The notes below the pieces were generated by a model that saw only the letters and a list, made by a program, of their open reading frames with translations, made no database searches and was not told where the DNA came from. A DNA stretch of 39,359 bases from a virus. Lineage: Duplodnaviria; Heunggongvirae; Uroviricota; Caudoviricetes. Location: the IMG/VR virus record IMGVR_UViG_2563366943_000021; one strand, 5' to 3'. Position 1 is the stretch's first letter. Every line of letters begins with the position of its first letter. Of the stretch, positions 532 through 39,359 are shown piece after piece. Made by a program: the position numbers and the translations under genes.

Positions 532-1071
532 ATGAAGAAAGTTTTTCTTTGCGCCATCTTAGCCTCCTTAAGCTATCCGGCTATCGCCTCATCATTGCAG
601 GATCAACTCTCTGCTGTCGCAGAAGCGGAACAGCAAGGTAAAAATGAAGAGCAAAGGCAGCATGACGAATGGGTCGCGGAGCGCAACAGGGAAATCCAGC
701 AAGAGAAGCAACGTCGCGCAAACGCCCAGGCCGCGGCTAATAAAAGAGCGGCAACGGCAGCAGCGAATAAGAAAGCTCGTCAGGATAAACTGGACGCCGA
801 AGCCACTGCGGACAAAAAACGCGATCAAAGTTATGAAGATGAGCTACGCAGCTTAGAGATTCAGAAACAAAAACTGGCGCTGGCGAAAGAAGAAGCCCGC
901 GTTAAGCGAGAAAACGAATTTATCGATCAGGAACTGAAGCACAAAGCTGCGCAAACCGATGTGGTGCAATCTGAAGCTGACGCAAACAGAAATATGACTG
1001 AAGGCGGTCGCGATCTGATGAAAAGCGTGGGCAAAGCAGAAGAGAACAAATCGGACAGCTGGTTTAATTAA
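532..1071 (+). CDS. yfgI: Secreted charged coiled-coil protein, YfgI-like; probably host gene
   Basis: Signal peptide MKKVFLCAILASLSYPAIA, then highly charged K/E/Q/A-rich sequence; 179 aa; RBS AGGAGG upstream; symbol rests on recalled synteny only. Confidence 0.5.
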   Translation: MKKVFLCAILASLSYPAIASSLQDQLSAVAEAEQQGKNEEQRQHDEWVAERNREIQQEKQRRANAQAAANKRAATAAANKKARQDKLDAEATADKKRDQSYEDELRSLEIQKQKLALAKEEARVKRENEFIDQELKHKAAQTDVVQSEADANRNMTEGGRDLMKSVGKAEENKSDSWFN

Positions 1072-1110
1072 TCGATGTAAGTAACTTCAAGCCTATAATT
1101 CTTGAAGATA

Positions 1111-1140
1111 AAAAACCCTCTGTAGTAACAGAGGGTTTTG
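1111..1140. terminator. Bidirectional rho-independent terminator between convergent host genes and prophage end
   Basis: Stem AACCCTCTG / CAGAGGGTT with 6-nt loop, A-run on the left and T-run on the right. Confidence 0.55.
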
Positions 1141-1165
1141 TTCATTCATAGTGCAGGGATCAAAA

Positions 1166-1182
1166 TCATTCCCACTCAATTA
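1166..1182 (-). other. Putative attL core: duplicated 3' end of a guaA-like gene (IEWE-stop) at the prophage-host junction
   Basis: Minus strand reads ATT GAG TGG GAA TGA (I E W E stop), the conserved GMP synthase C-terminus, but an in-frame TAA lies immediately upstream, so only the last codons are present. Confidence 0.45.
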
Positions 1183-1209
1183 TTTACGATAACCATAACC
1201 AATTGAGTG
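1174..1209. repeat. Perfect 9-bp inverted repeat CACTCAATT / AATTGAGTG with 18-bp spacer, overlapping the putative att core
   Basis: Direct reading; candidate integrase core-type binding sites. Confidence 0.4.
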
Positions 1210-1290
1210 ATAACATTTTTCCAAATCTCAATTTTTCCCGTACCGTTTTATATACCGTCACCGGAAATCAGTACCATGAAAAATGCCATG

Positions 1291-1773
1291 CTATCTGGTC
1301 AAAGTGTCGTACTGTTTTTCGCAGACTCTTCCGGCTTCGGCTGCCCGGTCAGCATACTCTGCCAGTTGTCTGTTTCTCTCGAGAGATTTGCTGAGCACGT
1401 CGGCAAGCAAAACTCCGGTGTCTGCGGCTGACGACCCAGCGCCGACAATGGCGTTATACTGCCTGAGCTGCTCACGGATGGCAAAGAGTTGTTGCTGCAA
1501 CCGGCCAGCGCTAGCGGCAGCATCAAGAGCATCATTGCGCGCCTGGTCGATCCTCTGCTGAGCTTCACGTTCATTGGTCACTTTCTCCTGTTCGTAGTAC
1601 TGACGAACTTTGTCTTCTTCGGCTTTGCGGTCTTCTTCCGCCTGCGCATACCCGGCATCGTACTGGCGACTGCCGTGTATATTCCAGGCAACAACTCCTG
1701 ATATGACCAGAACAGCAAGCACTGCCACGATAAGAAACTGTTTCCAGTATGCTTTTACGAATGCCCAGATCAT
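1291..1773 (-). CDS. Rz: Rz-like i-spanin
   Basis: N-terminal TM helix then charged coiled-coil periplasmic domain; directly downstream of endolysin with ATGA overlap; embedded Rz1-like ORF in another frame. Confidence 0.7.
1299..1535 (-). CDS. Rz1: Rz1-like o-spanin lipoprotein embedded within Rz
   Basis: Out-of-frame ORF wholly inside Rz; signal peptide with lipobox LAGC; Pro/Ser-rich; start chosen at internal Met ([13 protein letters not shown]), exact start uncertain. Confidence 0.5.
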   Translation of the reverse strand: MMLLMLPLALAGCSNNSLPSVSSSGSITPLSALGRQPQTPEFCLPTCSANLSRETDNWQSMLTGQPKPEESAKNSTTL

Positions 1774-2399
1774 ACCGCCAGCACCTTACTGGCAGTGATG
1801 TACCGCGCTCGCCGGTCGTCGATGCCGTTCCGGCCACCATTGATAATCAGAGTTACACGTGCAATATCGCCGGTATACTTCATGCATCCTTTGCTGGCGA
1901 AGAACCACGCCGCGCTACGAGCCGCATATTCGTCCTGCGCCAGCAGTTCAGGGCTCTCCAGCAGGTCAACCTTCAGACCGTTTCCGCAATCACGATAGTT
2001 ATTCAAACCGGTAATCTGGATAAGTCCGCGCCCTCGGTAATTCCAGCCATCACCAGGGGCATTGTTCCCCATGCGTTTGCTGTATACCAGATTTGCGATT
2101 GCGCGCTGGCGCTCAAGTGGCAATGGTGGTTCACCAGCACGGCGCCCCAGTGCATTAGCCTGCCCCTGAGTGAGACGCCCAGCCCGAACGAAGTTAGCCA
2201 GTCCGCTGACACTGTAGTTGAAATTCTCCTGCAACCTGGTGAAGCCCCCAGACTCATGCCCGGCTTGAGCAATAAACATTGCCTGATCTTCTGCTTTGCT
2301 GATACCAAACTCTTTCATCGCAGAAGTTATATGCGAGAACCAGCGTGCGGCCAGTGCCTCGCTGATACCAGCAGCTCGCTGGAATTGTTTAATCTCCAT
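1770..2399 (-). CDS. Endolysin, glycoside hydrolase family 19 (chitinase-like)
   Basis: Motifs [12 protein letters not shown] and [11 protein letters not shown] typical of GH19 phage endolysins; start moved to internal ATG (MEIKQFQ) at 2399; lies between holin genes and Rz. Confidence 0.85.
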
Positions 2400-2697
2400 G
2401 TTTAGACCTCGATACTTTAAAAATTTGAACGACGTTACCGCGCGTTTTAATAACCGCAGCCAGCATGACAGCGTTGATAATGACCTCAGATAAATCCACA
2501 GCCATTGGCGTACGTAACCAGATTGCATAGGCGACTCGAACAGGAATACTGGCCGCAGCAACAATCAGGAAATAAGCAAGCCATCCTCCCCACCTTCGAT
2601 GTTGAGAGCCGTTACGCCGGAATGTGACAACGCGAATTGCTATGCCAGTGCAAATAACTGCATTGGTGATAAGCAAAAAAAACTCATGCGTTACCAT
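2389..2697 (-). CDS. Small membrane protein of the lysis cassette (second holin or antiholin)
   Basis: 102 aa with predicted TM helices; RBS GGGAGA before ATG; between holin and endolysin. Confidence 0.5.
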
Positions 2698-3088
2698 CGT
2701 CTTTTCTCCCCGGAATTAACTCGCGTGGATTATCGGAACGGTGATAGAGCCATATACCAATACGCACAGCGACAATTGCTGACACGAATGCGCCTGCAGA
2801 GAAAACAATCCCTTTTTCAAAAGAGTCCTGCGTGATGGTAGGGATCAGGCTGGCTATGCCGATAAGAATTGATGCTGCTGGTTTGTAAAAGAGAAGGCCG
2901 CAAAGAAAGCTGAGCATCGACAGGAGCACCCGGCGACGGATGGGGTACTCTACTGCAGAGGTAACAAAAATTACCGCCCCAGCCAAAGCCCCTAAAGCAA
3001 CCTCCGGAGGGACACCTGCAATAACTGCAGCAAGAGAACCAAAACTAAGCAACTGATTTAATTGCTCACTTGTTACTTGAGCAGACAT
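2684..3088 (-). CDS. Holin
   Basis: 134 aa with several hydrophobic helices and charged C-terminus; first gene of lysis cassette; RBS AGGAG. Confidence 0.6.
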   Translation of the reverse strand: MSAQVTSEQLNQLLSFGSLAAVIAGVPPEVALGALAGAVIFVTSAVEYPIRRRVLLSMLSFLCGLLFYKPAASILIGIASLIPTITQDSFEKGIVFSAGAFVSAIVAVRIGIWLYHRSDNPRELIPGRKDDGNA

Positions 3089-3368
3089 ACTTTCTCCTGT
3101 TTACTATCTATAAGCCAGTCAATTATTGATGACTAAACCCGCATAGTAAACCATATATGAATCATTATTGTTCCATATCATATATCTCAATAAAAGTACT
3201 AATGATTTTACAGAACGAGCCAGCAGAGTGGGGGCAGTTGTACAGGAACCATAGACTTAATTTTGTATTTAATAATGCTATGGTGTAATAAACCTGAACA
3301 TGTATTTAAAATACGTACTGATTCATGATAGAATTCAAAGATAACTTTTCACCAACTCCGTTTTTGAT

Positions 3369-3396
3369 ACCCGCAATATTTTGCGGGCTTTTTTTT
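3369..3396 (+). terminator. Plus-strand rho-independent terminator overlapping the tailspike stop codon
   Basis: Stem CCCGCAA / TTGCGGG, loop TATT, followed by 8 T on the plus strand; on the minus strand the hairpin is followed by A-rich sequence. Confidence 0.4.
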
Positions 3397-6300
3397 AACG
3401 TTCTTCCAGAGACTGAACCCGCTCTTTTATCTTATCCATTTCTCTGCGCTGCCATGCTGCCTCGATATAGAATAAGAGATCAGGTCTGACCCCCCATCTA
3501 GATCCTGCTGGCGTTATTTCAACGCGCTCAATGATGTCTTCTATTACCATCACTGGATTATCATCCTCATCAACAATGATGCTCCCGTCATTATCAGTCA
3601 GCGGCATTTCCCTTTGGCCAGTAATGACGTCATCATATACTGCGGGATAATCGTCATAGCAAAGAAAGGCATAGCGGCATGTTGTGCTTTCTTCTTCCAT
3701 GAGTCCGTGAGAAATAAGAACATCACGAAGTTGCTGCGCGATTACACCATGATGTATCCTCGCCCCTTCTTCCCCCTTTATAGCGACAGCGTTCAGCCAT
3801 TTATAAGCGATATACCTGACGTCACCCCAGGCATCCAGCAATGCTTCGTCAGGAGAGACCGGCTCTGTCTTTAATGTTCCGTCACTGGTAACCACAGGAT
3901 TGGAGCCAAGATAAACTGTCGAGAACCTGTTTCCCGGACCACCAAGAGCATTTACATTATCAAGATAAGGTTTAACATCTCCGTTCTCAAAAAGATGTTC
4001 GAGTGCGTTATATACCGCGCGACGTGGAGTACTGCTTCCGGAACCATGCAACGTTATCATTGCACCATCTGCTGAAGACGTTGTTTCACCGCCGCTAACG
4101 ATTAATCTCTGAGCGGTAACATCATCAGACGGTACTTTCTTCGCAATAATGGCGTAATTACCCTCAAGTTTGACTTCCGCGCGAACTTGTCCTGATGTAC
4201 CTGCATGGACAGTCAGTGACTGGACGGCAACATCATCTGTGAAATCAACGGGTACAGGAACCGTCCTCACGCCTGACGTCGACATAAAAGTAGGAAGCGT
4301 TCTGTTAGGAGTGGCTCCGTAGACAAAATCCCTTGAAACAAATTCTTCCTGTTTAATTTTCACCCTGAAACAATACAAATCAGCCGGGTGACCATCGTGA
4401 ACATAAGGATATTTTCTGTTGTTATCCCCTATGCTCCATGGGTTTAGAAAGTCTTCCCCACCGAAAATGTAGTACAGCCAGTTGTCTTTGATACAAACTG
4501 AACCAACACCAACCGCAGAGTTAACTATTCCGCCCTGATAAATCTGATCAGTAACATTAACCCACTCTACATTATCCAGACTCCACTCATTGACGTTAAC
4601 TCTGGTCATAAATGTTCTTGGATAATTTCCTGCATAACGGTTATCAGGTTCTCCTCCTTCCCACTCACCAAATGCGCGCTCACTGCCAAAAATAATCAGC
4701 TCATCGCCAACTTTGGCAAAAGGAAGGTTTGAGTGATGAACATTATTTGGGAAGCGAAGAGAATTCCATGATGTACCTAAATCAGAGCTTCTGTGCAATG
4801 AACTACCGGGTTGAGTACTTAATGTCCCCCTGGTCGTCAGATACAGAATGCCATCATAATATTTTACACATGGCTCAGATGCATTCGCCTCATATTCTAC
4901 AGGTATGCGTCTGCGAACAAAGCTACCAGGAGAACCGAAAGCATCAGAGAAATAGAGTATCCCAAGCTCGCGTGGACCAATATCACCATTATGGTAGCCA
5001 ACAGCAAAACTGTTATCGCTAATCGTCGCAAAACTGTGAATCTCAGTAACAGGAGTGCTTCCGTCAACAAAAGAAGGAATAGTTCCAAGACTGGTTTTTC
5101 TCCATGGTGACGAGTGAAATGATGTGCCAAAACTCCAGTATCTACCCTCGTTATTCTGATCCACATCCTGGGTATTTTGCGTCGTAACTGTAAAGGTATT
5201 TTTATCAATAACAGTAGTCACCGTCATATTCCCGGTAACACCTGTAACACCAGAGTTTGAGAAGTTGACAAAATCACCAGCAAATAATCCGTGATCAGTA
5301 ATGCGAATATAAGCGACTTGCTGATTTGCTGCTTTCGTTATACCACCATAAACGCGAAGGCTGCGACTCATTGGGCGATCCCACAACTCTGCAACCTGCA
5401 GTTTATTTCCTCTCACGGTCCGCGTCTCAATTACAGCAAAAAGGCGATTTCTGACAACCCCCATACTCATGCAGTGATAGTTAACTGTGGGATAGTTTTC
5501 ATGTAAATCTGTAAGCCATTCCGGCGTTGTCCAGGTCTTCCCGTCATCTCCTGAGCGAACCCATGCAACATGGAGGTTATTTACACCATGGCGGTCTCCA
5601 GCCATAAAAGGCGCATAGATGACATTGTCATATACAAACGTTTTATCCTGCGTCCAGGCGTTGTACCACGGTGTATCTGTAATTTTAAATAACTCTCCCT
5701 GGATAAAATCTTCAGAAGCATAAAAAAGAGGCTGGCCCGGTATTCTCTCAAATAAAAAACGAGCATTTTTAAATCGACTGACATCCGGAAGAGTTGATAC
5801 TTTAAAAGTAAGCCCTAATCCGTCAATTTTATAACCTGGAGATGAGGCTTCAAGGCACGCGCTTATTGCAGTGGAATCGTCATTTATACCATCACCAACA
5901 GCTCCAAAATCTTTGGGGCTAATAGCATCACGCATTTTATCCTGGAACGTTCGGTACACAGCCCCAGAACCATACTGAATAAACCAACCAAAACCACCAA
6001 CAACTCCGGCGATTGCAGCATCGACATAATTACGCATTGAGCGATTATTTACAGCGTCCTGCTCAAATGATGGATCTGCAAGGTTAGAAATTTTGTTTTG
6101 CTTTGCATCGTAATATTTTGCAAGCAAAGATGGTTTCATCAATGCACGTCTGAACCACCCAAAACATTGCTGGATCAGCATCGTCAGGTAGTCAAAGGCA
6201 TCTTCATGCACTTCGGGGAAAAATTTTCCCTGATTGCGAAGGTCTGTGTCCTGCACTACATCAAGCACACGATCTATCGTAATTCGCCATCCAGTAGCAA

Positions 6301-6514
6301 GCGGAGACGGAAGAACCACAGAACCGCCACTATAAGTGCCCGCCCCAGTTACCGTATAACCGGTATCCAGGACCAATTCTGTTACGTTCCCGTTCAGGTC
6401 AGACACCTGAACAACCAGGTCTGATTTTCTGAAAATTCGAAAAGTATACGGAAACGATGTCGTAACGCCGTTACCGGTGTATTCGTTGTGGTCAACTTCG
6501 GTTGAGACCGTCAT
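3395..6514 (-). CDS. Tailspike: N-terminal particle-binding domain, Asp-box sialidase-like beta-propeller, C-terminal intramolecular chaperone domain
   Basis: 1039 aa; two Asp-boxes SGDDGKTW (5531-5554) and SSDLGTSW (4766-4789); C-terminal about 150 aa resembles the auto-cleaving chaperone domain of endosialidases; N-terminus resembles epsilon15-type tailspike anchors (recalled). Confidence 0.8.
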   Translation of the reverse strand: MTVSTEVDHNEYTGNGVTTSFPYTFRIFRKSDLVVQVSDLNGNVTELVLDTGYTVTGAGTYSGGSVVLPSPLATGWRITIDRVLDVVQDTDLRNQGKFFPEVHEDAFDYLTMLIQQCFGWFRRALMKPSLLAKYYDAKQNKISNLADPSFEQDAVNNRSMRNYVDAAIAGVVGGFGWFIQYGSGAVYRTFQDKMRDAISPKDFGAVGDGINDDSTAISACLEASSPGYKIDGLGLTFKVSTLPDVSRFKNARFLFERIPGQPLFYASEDFIQGELFKITDTPWYNAWTQDKTFVYDNVIYAPFMAGDRHGVNNLHVAWVRSGDDGKTWTTPEWLTDLHENYPTVNYHCMSMGVVRNRLFAVIETRTVRGNKLQVAELWDRPMSRSLRVYGGITKAANQQVAYIRITDHGLFAGDFVNFSNSGVTGVTGNMTVTTVIDKNTFTVTTQNTQDVDQNNEGRYWSFGTSFHSSPWRKTSLGTIPSFVDGSTPVTEIHSFATISDNSFAVGYHNGDIGPRELGILYFSDAFGSPGSFVRRRIPVEYEANASEPCVKYYDGILYLTTRGTLSTQPGSSLHRSSDLGTSWNSLRFPNNVHHSNLPFAKVGDELIIFGSERAFGEWEGGEPDNRYAGNYPRTFMTRVNVNEWSLDNVEWVNVTDQIYQGGIVNSAVGVGSVCIKDNWLYYIFGGEDFLNPWSIGDNNRKYPYVHDGHPADLYCFRVKIKQEEFVSRDFVYGATPNRTLPTFMSTSGVRTVPVPVDFTDDVAVQSLTVHAGTSGQVRAEVKLEGNYAIIAKKVPSDDVTAQRLIVSGGETTSSADGAMITLHGSGSSTPRRAVYNALEHLFENGDVKPYLDNVNALGGPGNRFSTVYLGSNPVVTSDGTLKTEPVSPDEALLDAWGDVRYIAYKWLNAVAIKGEEGARIHHGVIAQQLRDVLISHGLMEEESTTCRYAFLCYDDYPAVYDDVITGQREMPLTDNDGSIIVDEDDNPVMVIEDIIERVEITPAGSRWGVRPDLLFYIEAAWQRREMDKIKERVQSLEER

Positions 6515-7013: not shown

Positions 7014-7103
7014 ATTTACATCGCACTCCTCTTGTGCCATAGTAATCGGGCACTGGCAAAATCCAGTGCCGGGATTGGCGTCCCGAGTTACTAAGTGGCG
7101 CAT

Positions 7104-7127
7104 ACCACGCCAGACGTGGTTTTTTTA
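7104..7127 (+). terminator. Rho-independent terminator or attenuator in the ant leader
   Basis: Stem ACCACG / CGTGGT, loop CCAGA, followed by 7 T; about 100 nt downstream of the promoter and 155 nt upstream of ant. Confidence 0.45.
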
Positions 7128-7282
7128 TGCGTTAAGCACAGCTATATCCGAATTATGGTGGGCTGGGCAGGGGTCCGAAAGGACGCCGGTACCACTTAGG
7201 CCGGTACGCCAACCTTGTCCAGTTCACCACCAGTAATTGGCGTTGCGGTGGTGATTAAAATCACTAAGTGGAGATAACCACC

Positions 7283-7993
7283 ATGGCTAATGCTCAAACT
7301 GCCATCTTCAAATTTGAATCTGTAAACCCTATCCGTTCCATCATTATCGATGGCCAACCATGGTTTGTAGCCCAAGACGTTTGTAGTGCGCTGCGTATCC
7401 AAAACGTCACCCAAGCACTTGAAAAACTGGATGATGATGAAAGGTCTATGTTCAACATAGGGCATGAACATCGTGCAATTTTTGACAGCCGAGTAAAAGA
7501 GATCAACATCATCTCCGAGTCAGGCCTCTACACACTGATCCTCCGCTGCCGCGACGCAGTGACACCAGGCACTATCCCCTACCGCTTTCGTAAATGGGTT
7601 ACAGGTGAGGTTCTTCCTCAGATCCGCCGCACCGGAAGCTACATTAAAAACTCGCTCCCGCAGGAAGAACGCATAAAGATGGTTGCCGACCAGGTAGCCA
7701 ACGCCACGGCGTCAGCAGTAATGCAGGCGATGAAGATAGAGAACAAAACCTACAGCGCCCCACTGAAGCCCGGCTACCGCAGCCTGATTCACTCGCCGTC
7801 TGGTGTTCTCGGCCTGACGGAGAACTCACTGCTGATGAATTTGCTGAACCAGTTGCAGGAAGACGGGCACGATGTATCGGGCGCGGCGGCGGAGCTGACC
7901 ACCATGTTCTGCTACATCGTTGGTGTGAGCAAATGCCTGCGTGATATCCAGACGCACGCGGAGTACATCAACGACAAGGCAGGATTCTTCTGA
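7283..7993 (+). CDS. Antirepressor (Bro-N / AntA-like N-terminal domain)
   Basis: N-terminal IFKFE...DGQPWFVAQDVCSAL matches Bro-N/AntA signature; start set at ATG 7283 with RBS GGAG (tracked start is GTG 7268). Confidence 0.7.
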   Translation: MANAQTAIFKFESVNPIRSIIIDGQPWFVAQDVCSALRIQNVTQALEKLDDDERSMFNIGHEHRAIFDSRVKEINIISESGLYTLILRCRDAVTPGTIPYRFRKWVTGEVLPQIRRTGSYIKNSLPQEERIKMVADQVANATASAVMQAMKIENKTYSAPLKPGYRSLIHSPSGVLGLTENSLLMNLLNQLQEDGHDVSGAAAELTTMFCYIVGVSKCLRDIQTHAEYINDKAGFF

Positions 7994-26020: not shown

Positions 26021-26097
26021 GTGGCATTAGCTCAGCTGGACAGAGCAACCGCCTTCTAAGCGGTTGGTCGCAGGTTCGAATCCTGCATGCCACGCCA
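26021..26097 (+). tRNA. tRNA-Arg (anticodon UCU)
   Basis: Hand-folded cloverleaf: 7-bp acceptor stem GTGGCAT/ATGCCAC, D-arm GCTC..GAGC, anticodon stem ACCGC/GCGGT with loop CTTCTAA (anticodon TCT), T-arm GCAGGTTCGAATCCTGC, discriminator G, encoded CCA. Confidence 0.8.
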
Positions 26098-38108: not shown

Positions 38109-39359
38109 TTATTCCCCCGCCATCCACTTCTCAAACTTCGACGGGGAGAACGGAATCAGATCCGTATGCTCCCCGTCAATCCATGAATCAATCATATCGG
38201 CCCACTGCTGCAACATGTAGGCGCGCTGTCTGGCGTATTCCGCTTTGTTATATACGGCGCGCACACCTTTCTGCTCATGTGCCAGAGCCTTTTCAATCCA
38301 GTCTGAAGGATAACCAGCCTCATGCAACAACGTACTGGCTGTACGGCGCATATCGTGTACGGTGAAGCCCTGAATATGCTCACCATCTTCATTTATTATT
38401 TTCACCGTTCTGTCGATCAGAGAGTTCAGCGCGGCATTAGATAATGGCTTCCGGAAATTGTAACGACCAGGAACCAGATATTCACTTCCACCAGCGCACA
38501 TCTGCAACCCAACCAATATATCCTGTGCCTGTTTAGGCAGGTAAATAACGTGCGCCCGGCTTCCCTTCATGCGGTCTGAAGGAATTGTCCATGTCCATTT
38601 TTTAAAATCTATTTCATCCCACGTTGCATTGGTGAATTCGCCTTTACGAACCATAGTGATAAGCACCAGCTTTAAAGCCATTTTCATAGTGCCCATAGCA
38701 CCAATGGCATCCAGCGTGCGGAAGAACAGGCCAATTTCTTCTGGTGTCAGTGTTCGCTCTCGTGGTTTAAATATGGCGATAGACGAAGGTTTAATGTCAG
38801 CCGCAGGATTAAACAAACCATGACCACGGTCATTGGCGTGACGGTATACGCTGCTGATGATCTCCCTGGCCTGTACTGCTGTTGCCCGACCACCGCGTTC
38901 GACAATCCGGTCACACAAATCACGAACCATCGATGTGGTAATTTCAGCCATCATTTTGTTACCAAGAACAGGAAGTATGTCACGGTCGATCACCGCCTGC
39001 TTCATTGCGCGGGTACTGTCAGCCAGGATGACGTGTTTCATATAACTGTCGGTATGTACCGCAAACGTCTCGGCACCACGAATCTTTTTGATACCGTCAC
39101 GTTTAGCCGCAGCCGGTGACTGGCCTGCTTTAAGCAGCTTCTTTGCAGCAATCAGTTCTTCTCGCGCTTCTGCCAGGCTGATACCGTCACGCCCATACTG
39201 CCCGATTACCAGTGTTTCGCGGCGACCGTTGATACGGTAGTCATAGCGAAACGAGACCGTGCCTGACGTAAGCACAGCTACATACAGCCCGTCACGATCG
39301 GAGACCTTGTACAGTTTGTCCTGCGGCTTGAGGTTTTTTAATTTTGTATCGGTAAGCAC
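38109..39359 (-). CDS. int: Tyrosine integrase, P4-type; N-terminus truncated by window edge
   Basis: N-terminal LTDTKLKNLKP arm-binding signature; C-terminal catalytic domain with R...HxxR...Y-type residues (HDMRRTASTLL ... VRAVY); ORF runs off the window at 39359. Confidence 0.9.
   Translation of the reverse strand: MLTDTKLKNLKPQDKLYKVSDRDGLYVAVLTSGTVSFRYDYRINGRRETLVIGQYGRDGISLAEAREELIAAKKLLKAGQSPAAAKRDGIKKIRGAETFAVHTDSYMKHVILADSTRAMKQAVIDRDILPVLGNKMMAEITTSMVRDLCDRIVERGGRATAVQAREIISSVYRHANDRGHGLFNPAADIKPSSIAIFKPRERTLTPEEIGLFFRTLDAIGAMGTMKMALKLVLITMVRKGEFTNATWDEIDFKKWTWTIPSDRMKGSRAHVIYLPKQAQDILVGLQMCAGGSEYLVPGRYNFRKPLSNAALNSLIDRTVKIINEDGEHIQGFTVHDMRRTASTLLHEAGYPSDWIEKALAHEQKGVRAVYNKAEYARQRAYMLQQWADMIDSWIDGEHTDLIPFSPSKFEKWMAGE

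Follow-up and report, generated by a model that had tools for sequence, protein, structure and literature searches.

Phage endosialidases serve as capsule-stripping reagents and diagnostic tools and are the basis of phage therapy against K1 Escherichia coli, which causes neonatal meningitis and many extra-intestinal infections. EndoNF, the gp17 protein of the lytic Autographiviridae phage K1F (PDB 1V0E, 3GVL and 3GW6), carries a T7 gp17-type N-terminal adaptor, followed by an endosialidase N-terminal extension and further domains through to a chaperone. In epsilon15, the spike gp20, which we take to cut Salmonella O-antigen, is encoded upstream of the holin and lysis cassette, and serotype-conversion genes lie directly downstream of the tailspike gene. 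E. coli RS218 harbours the P22-like K1 prophage CUS-3, whose tailspike SiaK1 (ABQ88383.1) has an N-terminal head-binding domain of the P22 type; the SiaK1 record lists endo-alpha-sialidase activity and cites IDA evidence for it (PMID 16689790). Finally, ORF7 (QTH80017.1) of vB_EcoP_ZX5 (MW722083), which has a Uetakevirus backbone, has already been described as a central endosialidase flanked by a tail-fibre domain at the N-terminus and an intramolecular chaperone at the C-terminus (PMC9782041).

We analysed a stretch of viral DNA of 39,359 nucleotides (the window), which is an epsilon15-like prophage adjoining yfgH/yfgI. The phages phiV10, phiv142-3 and HEMP4 share 95-98% identity with its backbone, and its gene order follows that of epsilon15, namely tailspike, membrane protein, holin, endolysin, Rz-like protein and integrase. 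The tailspike gene is a real ORF of 1039 amino acids with an ATG start at 3395..6514 on the minus strand, exactly as the first-pass annotation had described it; the features within the gene, given below in window coordinates, lie on the same strand. The product matches PHROG 1171 (tail spike protein) over its full length (E 0), and we consider it almost certain from the sequence comparisons below that it is a phage tailspike that digests the E. coli K1 capsule of polysialic acid, namely an endosialidase joined to an anchor of the epsilon15 type and to a C-terminal chaperone domain.

The closest relative is vB_EcoP_ZX5 ORF7, which has the same length, architecture and Uetakevirus backbone and is 99.7% identical over the whole gene and 99.6% identical in protein, with four amino acid differences (D89E, V539A, I991M and V1033I). 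The remaining vB_EcoP_ZX5 genome is collinear with the window at high identity only in part. Identical copies of the tailspike in RefSeq already carry an endosialidase label. Since the same protein has thus been both published and annotated, the tailspike is an ordinary one; its chimeric build, enzyme family, structure and chaperone are already known, and this copy adds no new biology.

A prophage copy such as this may be silent, or its prophage may be defective. An IS3 element splits the tailspike gene in 23CRST038 and in MS20654, and in the IAI39 copy of the prophage a neighbouring virion gene is split by IS3 elements. However, the window ORF is intact, as are all of its epsilon15-type structural, lysis and integrase ORFs, and vB_EcoP_ZX5, whose spike protein has 99.6% identity to this one, forms plaques and was isolated as a temperate phage (PMC9782041). 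We therefore regard it as very unlikely that the gene is a relic that no longer serves infection.

The N-terminus was previously noted to be an epsilon15-type anchor, which holds. Residues 1-165 (6020..6514) form a particle-binding anchor of the Uetakevirus/epsilon15 gp20 type, with 71% identity to residues 1-161 of epsilon15 gp20 (NP_848228.1; E 2e-66), which is encoded at the same genomic position; past residue 165, no significant similarity to gp20 was found. The N-terminus of Dpo31 (PDB 28lx) also matches the anchor (E 3e-35). By contrast, the corresponding parts of SiaK1 and endoNF differ from it, with less than 20% identity for the CUS-3 head-binding domain and 20% for the endoNF adaptor over aa 1-195.

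At the nucleotide level, positions 1-582 of the gene are 98.3% identical to the tail fibre gene of phiv142-3, which has a Uetakevirus anchor. A sliding identity profile revealed that this match stops near nt 580 and that a match to CUS-3 begins near nt 699. The intervening module junction (aa 195-233, gene nt 583-699; 5816..5932), which contains the motif DFGAVGDGINDD, has 43% identity to CUS-3 and is near-identical to neither parent type. Downstream of it, a block like CUS-3 siaK1 (gene nt 699-3091, approximately aa 234-1030; 3425..5815) is 99.4% identical in nucleotides and, over aa 233-1030, 98.6% identical in protein, so that propeller, barrel, stalk and chaperone are all shared with SiaK1, whereas the last nine residues of the two proteins differ. 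Judged by these alignments, the tailspike gene is a mosaic of a Uetakevirus anchor and a CUS-3-type catalytic and chaperone block.

The proposal that the protein is an endosialidase was upheld by Pfam, in which four endosialidase domains and the S74 domain all scored far above the curated cut-offs. An N-terminal extension occupies aa 205-271 (5702..5902; PF12218, End_N_terminal, E 5.9e-32) and is followed by a six-bladed beta-propeller catalytic domain at aa 272-721 (4352..5701; PF12217, End_beta_propel, E 1.7e-232), which spans the full profile (1-367). A beta-barrel is inserted in the propeller at aa 383-465 (5120..5368; PF12195, End_beta_barrel, E 3.2e-46), and the stalk, or tail-spike domain, covers aa 722-876 (3887..4351; PF12219, End_tail_spike, E 8.4e-78). 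The sequences of the endoNF (GH58) crystal structures 1V0E and 3GVL matched aa 205-876 at E = 0, and the phi92 endosialidase 4HIZ matched at E 9.4e-271. The domain order is that of endoNF, and identity to it falls from 69% in the propeller to 56% in the stalk and 51% in the chaperone. Throughout the catalytic part, identity to the solved endoNF structures is 62-69%, so that the fold can be considered already settled.

Both Asp-boxes on which the first-pass annotation had relied are present inside the propeller and fit the pattern S-x-D-x-G-x-[TS]-W: SGDDGKTW at aa 321-328 (5531-5554) and SSDLGTSW at aa 576-583 (4766-4789). Their endoNF counterparts in the alignment are SGDDGQTW and SRDIGQTW. 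A composition-preserving shuffle of the protein yielded 0.0015 matches on average against the two observed, indicating that the boxes are not due to chance. With respect to the catalytic and substrate-binding residues listed for endoNF (PMC12632334), H350, R549, E581, R596 and R647 are conserved as H309, R515, E547, R562 and R613. The second-shell residues Q330, D331, H527, S528, K585 and N699 (endoNF numbering) are conserved as well. In the stalk, R837, S848 and Q853 of endoNF presumably contact polysialic acid and make up a second polysialic-acid site; the first two match R803 and S814 of the tailspike, whereas Q853 is replaced by M819. The tailspike further differs from endoNF by a seven-residue insertion, FVDGSTP, at aa 481-487.

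The loss of a presumed stalk contact and the insertion could be taken to mean that the spike is an adhesin and not a depolymerase, binding polysialic acid with little or no catalytic activity. This appears extremely improbable, as all five catalytic and six second-shell residues are conserved, and CUS-3 SiaK1, whose record cites activity by direct assay, has both the same methionine and the same insertion. An active depolymerase is thus the reading we retain, with enzyme activity predicted from residue conservation and near-identity to characterised proteins.

The C-terminal domain, which had been likened to the auto-cleaving chaperone of K1F-type endosialidases, proved to be of this kind. The intramolecular chaperone, or peptidase S74 domain, extends over aa 877-1039 (3398..3886); Peptidase_S74 (PF13884) covers aa 877-937 (E 1.7e-10), and the endoNF chaperone construct (PDB 3GW6) matches aa 757-1038 (E 2e-93). 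S911 and K916 of endoNF, which we take to be the residues of its Ser-Lys dyad, align to S877 and K882 in the context NPVVT-S-DGTLK. Autocleavage by the S877/K882 dyad would be expected after S877, in line with the described Ser-Lys autocleavage dyad (PMC3742443).

In the model that we propose, the tailspike belongs to a temperate epsilon15-like (Uetakevirus) podovirus, integrated beside yfgH/yfgI in an E. coli chromosome, and likely forms a homotrimer by analogy with endoNF. The first approximately 165-195 residues would attach the spike to the tail, and aa 205-876, as a GH58 endo-alpha-2,8-sialidase made up of the N-terminal extension, the propeller with its inserted barrel and the stalk, would bind and cut the K1 capsule, which would serve as the receptor for the window prophage, thereby allowing the virion to reach the outer membrane. 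The chaperone at aa 877-1039 would aid folding of the trimeric stalk and then cut itself off after Ser877 through the Ser877/Lys882 dyad, its release leaving a mature spike of 877 residues. In this model, the gene itself arose by module exchange, in which a Uetakevirus anchor was fused to the catalytic and chaperone block also carried by the P22-like K1 prophage CUS-3, with a conserved DFGAxGDG motif as the joining point.

The distribution of the gene across hosts bears on its specificity. Among 5426 complete E. coli genomes, neuS is present in 329 and the catalytic segment of the tailspike is matched in 186. A concatenated query of the catalytic segment and neuS matched 330 genomes, and from this union count it follows that 185 of the 186 segment-positive genomes also carry neuS. 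A rougher check placed 10 of the best 25 tailspike genomes among the first 60 listed neuS genomes (hypergeometric P = 3.6e-14). Nucleotide identity of the endosialidase-chaperone cassette reaches 99% or more in 185 of the 186 genomes, and the cassette occurs in approximately 56% of the neuS-positive complete genomes, at up to four places per genome; it thus tracks neuS-positive genomes tightly. IAI39 carries an essentially identical copy of the tailspike (100.0% in the BLAST table) and a complete K1 locus, kpsEDUCS-neuSECABD-kpsTM, at 3.584-3.599 Mb; capsule genes were also looked for at 3.30-3.35 Mb of this genome, and none were seen. Since the closest match to the flanks of the window is at 99.8%, we infer the K1 status of the window's own host only from such relatives. 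The practical value of this copy is small; the tailspike labels the host of the prophage as almost certainly K1.

Together with the protein identity to CUS-3 SiaK1, the neuS-positive carriers and the full kps/neu locus of IAI39 support the earlier suggestion that the spike is specific for a polysialic-acid capsule of the K1 type. Another sialic-acid polymer as the target, such as the K92 capsule with its alternating alpha-2,8/alpha-2,9 linkages, might be suggested by the strong phi92 match and by 14 genomes whose neuS shares no more than 80-90% identity with that of IAI39 and could encode another type of polysialyltransferase, but it is highly implausible given that endoNF of K1F scores higher than phi92 (1046 versus 904 bits), that the near-identical CUS-3 block occurs in strains recorded as serovar K1, and that the carriers include strains named O7:K1 as well as IAI39 with its alpha-2,8-polysialyltransferase locus.

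We further compared the surroundings of the gene with those of its relatives. CUS-3 has neuO, a phase-variable polysialic-acid O-acetyltransferase gene, downstream of its spike gene, whereas a search for neuO across the window gave no tblastn match better than E 2.9, and no AAGACTC heptanucleotide repeats were found there. Because both are absent from the window, the prophage seems not to share the capsule modification of CUS-3. When serotype-conversion genes of the epsilon15/phiV10 style were sought in the slot between the tailspike and holin genes, only a non-coding gap of 306 nt was found in the ORF list (3089..3394).

The cassette is found on two unrelated temperate podovirus backbones, the P22-like CUS-3 and the epsilon15-like one. 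The epsilon15-like version has neither neuO nor another serotype-conversion gene in the slot, a place occupied by such a gene in related phages. It is possible, albeit unlikely, that the cassette circulates between both backbones and that this version therefore relates to the capsule of its own host differently from CUS-3; for example, it might leave the capsule without a modification capable of limiting superinfection or self-adsorption. The tailspike-holin gap itself contains a GC-rich hairpin at 3370-3387.

The tailspike gene is an ATG-initiated open reading frame of 1039 codons on the minus strand (window 3395-6514), and its product carries both Asp-boxes quoted in the first-pass annotation, SGDDGKTW at aa 321-328 and SSDLGTSW at aa 576-583, each fitting S-x-D-x-G-x-[TS]-W. 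Since shuffled versions of the protein contained a mean of 0.0015 such matches, the two observed are not attributable to chance. A Pfam scan identified five domains in phage-endosialidase order, each far over its curated cut-off: End_N_terminal (aa 205-271, E 5.9e-32), End_beta_propel (aa 272-721, E 1.7e-232), End_beta_barrel inserted within the propeller (aa 383-465, E 3.2e-46), End_tail_spike (aa 722-876, E 8.4e-78) and Peptidase_S74, "chaperone of endosialidase" (aa 877-937, E 1.7e-10). Among PDB sequences, structures of endoNF, the gp17 spike of phage K1F (1V0E, 3GVL and mutants), matched aa 205-876 at E = 0, the phi92 endosialidase (4HIZ) matched at 9.4e-271, and the endoNF stalk-plus-chaperone construct 3GW6 matched aa 757-1038 at 2e-93. 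These matches support the endosialidase identity that had been proposed and confirm the K1F-type C-terminal chaperone domain.

The protein is already known, being a published, database-annotated member of a well-studied family. ORF7 of Escherichia phage vB_EcoP_ZX5 is 99.7% identical over the whole gene, with four amino-acid differences. Its published description gives it a tail-fibre domain at the N-terminus, an endosialidase-like domain in the centre and an endosialidase intramolecular chaperone at the C-terminus, and K1 polysialic acid was discussed in connection with it (PMC9782041). In RefSeq, E. coli copies that are essentially identical carry an endosialidase label, and the full-length chimeric gene is present in 72 complete genomes.

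The window opens with chromosomal yfgH (1-516), which encodes a glycine-zipper lipoprotein, and yfgI (532-1071), a DUF5384 gene. Between this flank and the tailspike lie, in order, an Rz-like gene (DUF2514), a gene for a GH19 endolysin and a pair of holin-type genes; beyond the tailspike are an antirepressor region, virion and packaging genes, genes for replication and regulation, and an integrase (38109-39359). On the basis of this flank, a gene order equal to that of epsilon15, and a backbone sharing 95-98% identity with phiV10, phiv142-3 and HEMP4, which belong wholly or mostly to Uetakevirus, we regard the window as an epsilon15-like prophage together with host DNA on one side. Approximately the first 1.1 kb (the 1-1164 region) is host chromosome; phage matches start at about 1164, and therefore one prophage-host junction lies inside the window. 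For some genomes, it is possible that the tailspike is a relic in a dead prophage, given that an IS3 element splits its gene in 23CRST038 and in MS20654 and that IS3 elements split a neighbouring virion gene in E. coli IAI39. In the window, however, every expected open reading frame is intact, and the phage ZX5 is viable. The IAI39 copy (2.733-2.777 Mb) is probably defective despite a tailspike at 100.0% match to that of the window, because IS3-family insertions split a large virion gene and yfgI, adjoining the prophage end, is interrupted by a group II intron reverse transcriptase.

Sliding nucleotide comparison and BLAST tables indicate that the tailspike gene is a mosaic. The epsilon15-type anchor noted earlier was borne out by gp20, the tailspike of Salmonella phage epsilon15, which is 71% identical over aa 1-165 (E 2e-66); no significant similarity to gp20 was found beyond aa 165. 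Gene nt 1-582 are closest (98%) to the tail-fibre gene of Uetakevirus phiv142-3, which is fully divergent thereafter, whereas nt 699-3091 are 99.4% identical to siaK1, the endosialidase tailspike gene of the P22-like K1 prophage CUS-3; the last 29 nt are unlike CUS-3, with low identity. Correspondingly, SiaK1 shares 98.6% protein identity over aa 233-1030 but <20% in the first 195 residues. The intervening nt 583-698 are near-identical to neither type (43% protein identity to CUS-3) and hold the DFGAVGDGINDD motif, a conserved stretch found also in other spikes in protein alignments. This anchor/endosialidase junction (window 5816-5932, minus strand; aa 195-233) falls in a DFGAxGDGxxDD motif that the spikes of phiv142-3, CUS-3 and K1F also contain. 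None of the three closely matches the surrounding 39 residues, which suggests either that a third donor was involved or that the exchange is older. GC content is 0.42-0.45 over the tailspike versus ~0.50 in the rest of the window, which fits an imported module.

The first-pass annotation had also implied a K1-type capsule receptor and suggested looking for kps/neu genes in the host. We made this search in relatives; the best match to the window's flank was 99.8%. IAI39, with the tailspike at a reported 100.0% identity, carries a complete group 2 capsule locus in which the alpha-2,8-polysialyltransferase gene neuS, neuC, neuB and other neu genes are flanked by kps export genes. Using IAI39 neuS as the probe, we detected neuS in 329 of 5426 complete genomes, while a probe from the catalytic part of the tailspike matched 186 (181 at >=80% coverage) and both probes joined end to end matched 330. 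Inclusion-exclusion places both sequences in 185 of the 186; the lone exception may be the genome with just a 120-nt partial match. The association between the endosialidase cassette and the K1 capsule locus is essentially complete, and about 56% of neuS-positive genomes contain the cassette. Both the observation and the interpretation of the earlier annotation are correct, and those of its suggested checks that were run pass. Specificity for another polymer, such as K92, is unlikely, as the tailspike matches K1F better than phi92 and strains named O7:K1 are among the carriers. The catalytic segment shows >=99% nucleotide identity in 185 of 186 genomes, occurs at up to four sites per genome (e.g. 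ExPEC XM, GPEC403-625) and is annotated under two product names, one being "phage tailspike protein". We would guess that the two names distinguish P22-type from epsilon15-type versions, which would mean that several prophages sharing one capsule depolymerase coexist within single K1 strains.

A deep-mutational scan of the K1F spike identified H350, R549, E581, R596 and R647 as key catalytic and substrate residues (PMC12632334); these align to tailspike H309, R515, E547, R562 and R613, and second-shell residues Q330, D331, H527, S528, K585 and N699 (endoNF numbering) are likewise kept. A spike that only binds, or is enzymatically dead, is contradicted by the full conservation of the catalytic residues and also by the near-identity of the tailspike to the enzyme of CUS-3, in whose record the endo-alpha-sialidase activity of siaK1 is backed by direct-assay evidence (PMID 16689790). 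Aligned pairwise to K1F gp17, the propeller is 69% identical, the stalk 56% and the chaperone domain 51%. Tailspike S877 and K882 (context NPVVT-S-DGTLK) align to endoNF S911 and K916, which we take to be its Ser-Lys dyad. Self-cutting of the endosialidase chaperone domain uses such a dyad (PMC3742443). Cleavage after S877 would yield a mature spike of 877 residues and free 162 residues.

The anchor, capsule-cutting and chaperone steps are established for endoNF-type spikes. By homology, the anchor would fix the spike to the phage tail, the propeller and stalk would bind the alpha-2,8 polysialic-acid capsule as receptor and cut it, giving the virion access to the cell surface, and the C-terminal domain would assist folding of the trimeric stalk before removing itself. 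The tailspike has M819, as does CUS-3, in place of endoNF Q853, presumably a stalk polysialic-acid contact, and a seven-residue insertion relative to endoNF (aa 481-487) is also present in CUS-3.

CUS-3 carries neuO and AAGACTC repeats, whereas neither was found across the window. Where epsilon15 has serotype-conversion (O-antigen conversion) genes, the window has a 306-nt non-coding gap between the tailspike and holin genes (3089-3394), which includes a hairpin at 3370-3387. Two plus-strand Rfam matches that exceed the gathering score, an isrK Hfq-binding RNA (7050-7126, 67 bits) and a C4 antisense RNA (7151-7234, 66 bits), lie directly upstream of a Bro-N antirepressor gene (7268-7993), an arrangement that resembles the c4-ant immunity region of P1/P7 but in an epsilon15-like prophage. 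Within the prophage, a tRNA-Arg gene (anticodon TCT; 26021-26097, plus strand) separates the portal region from the terminase region.
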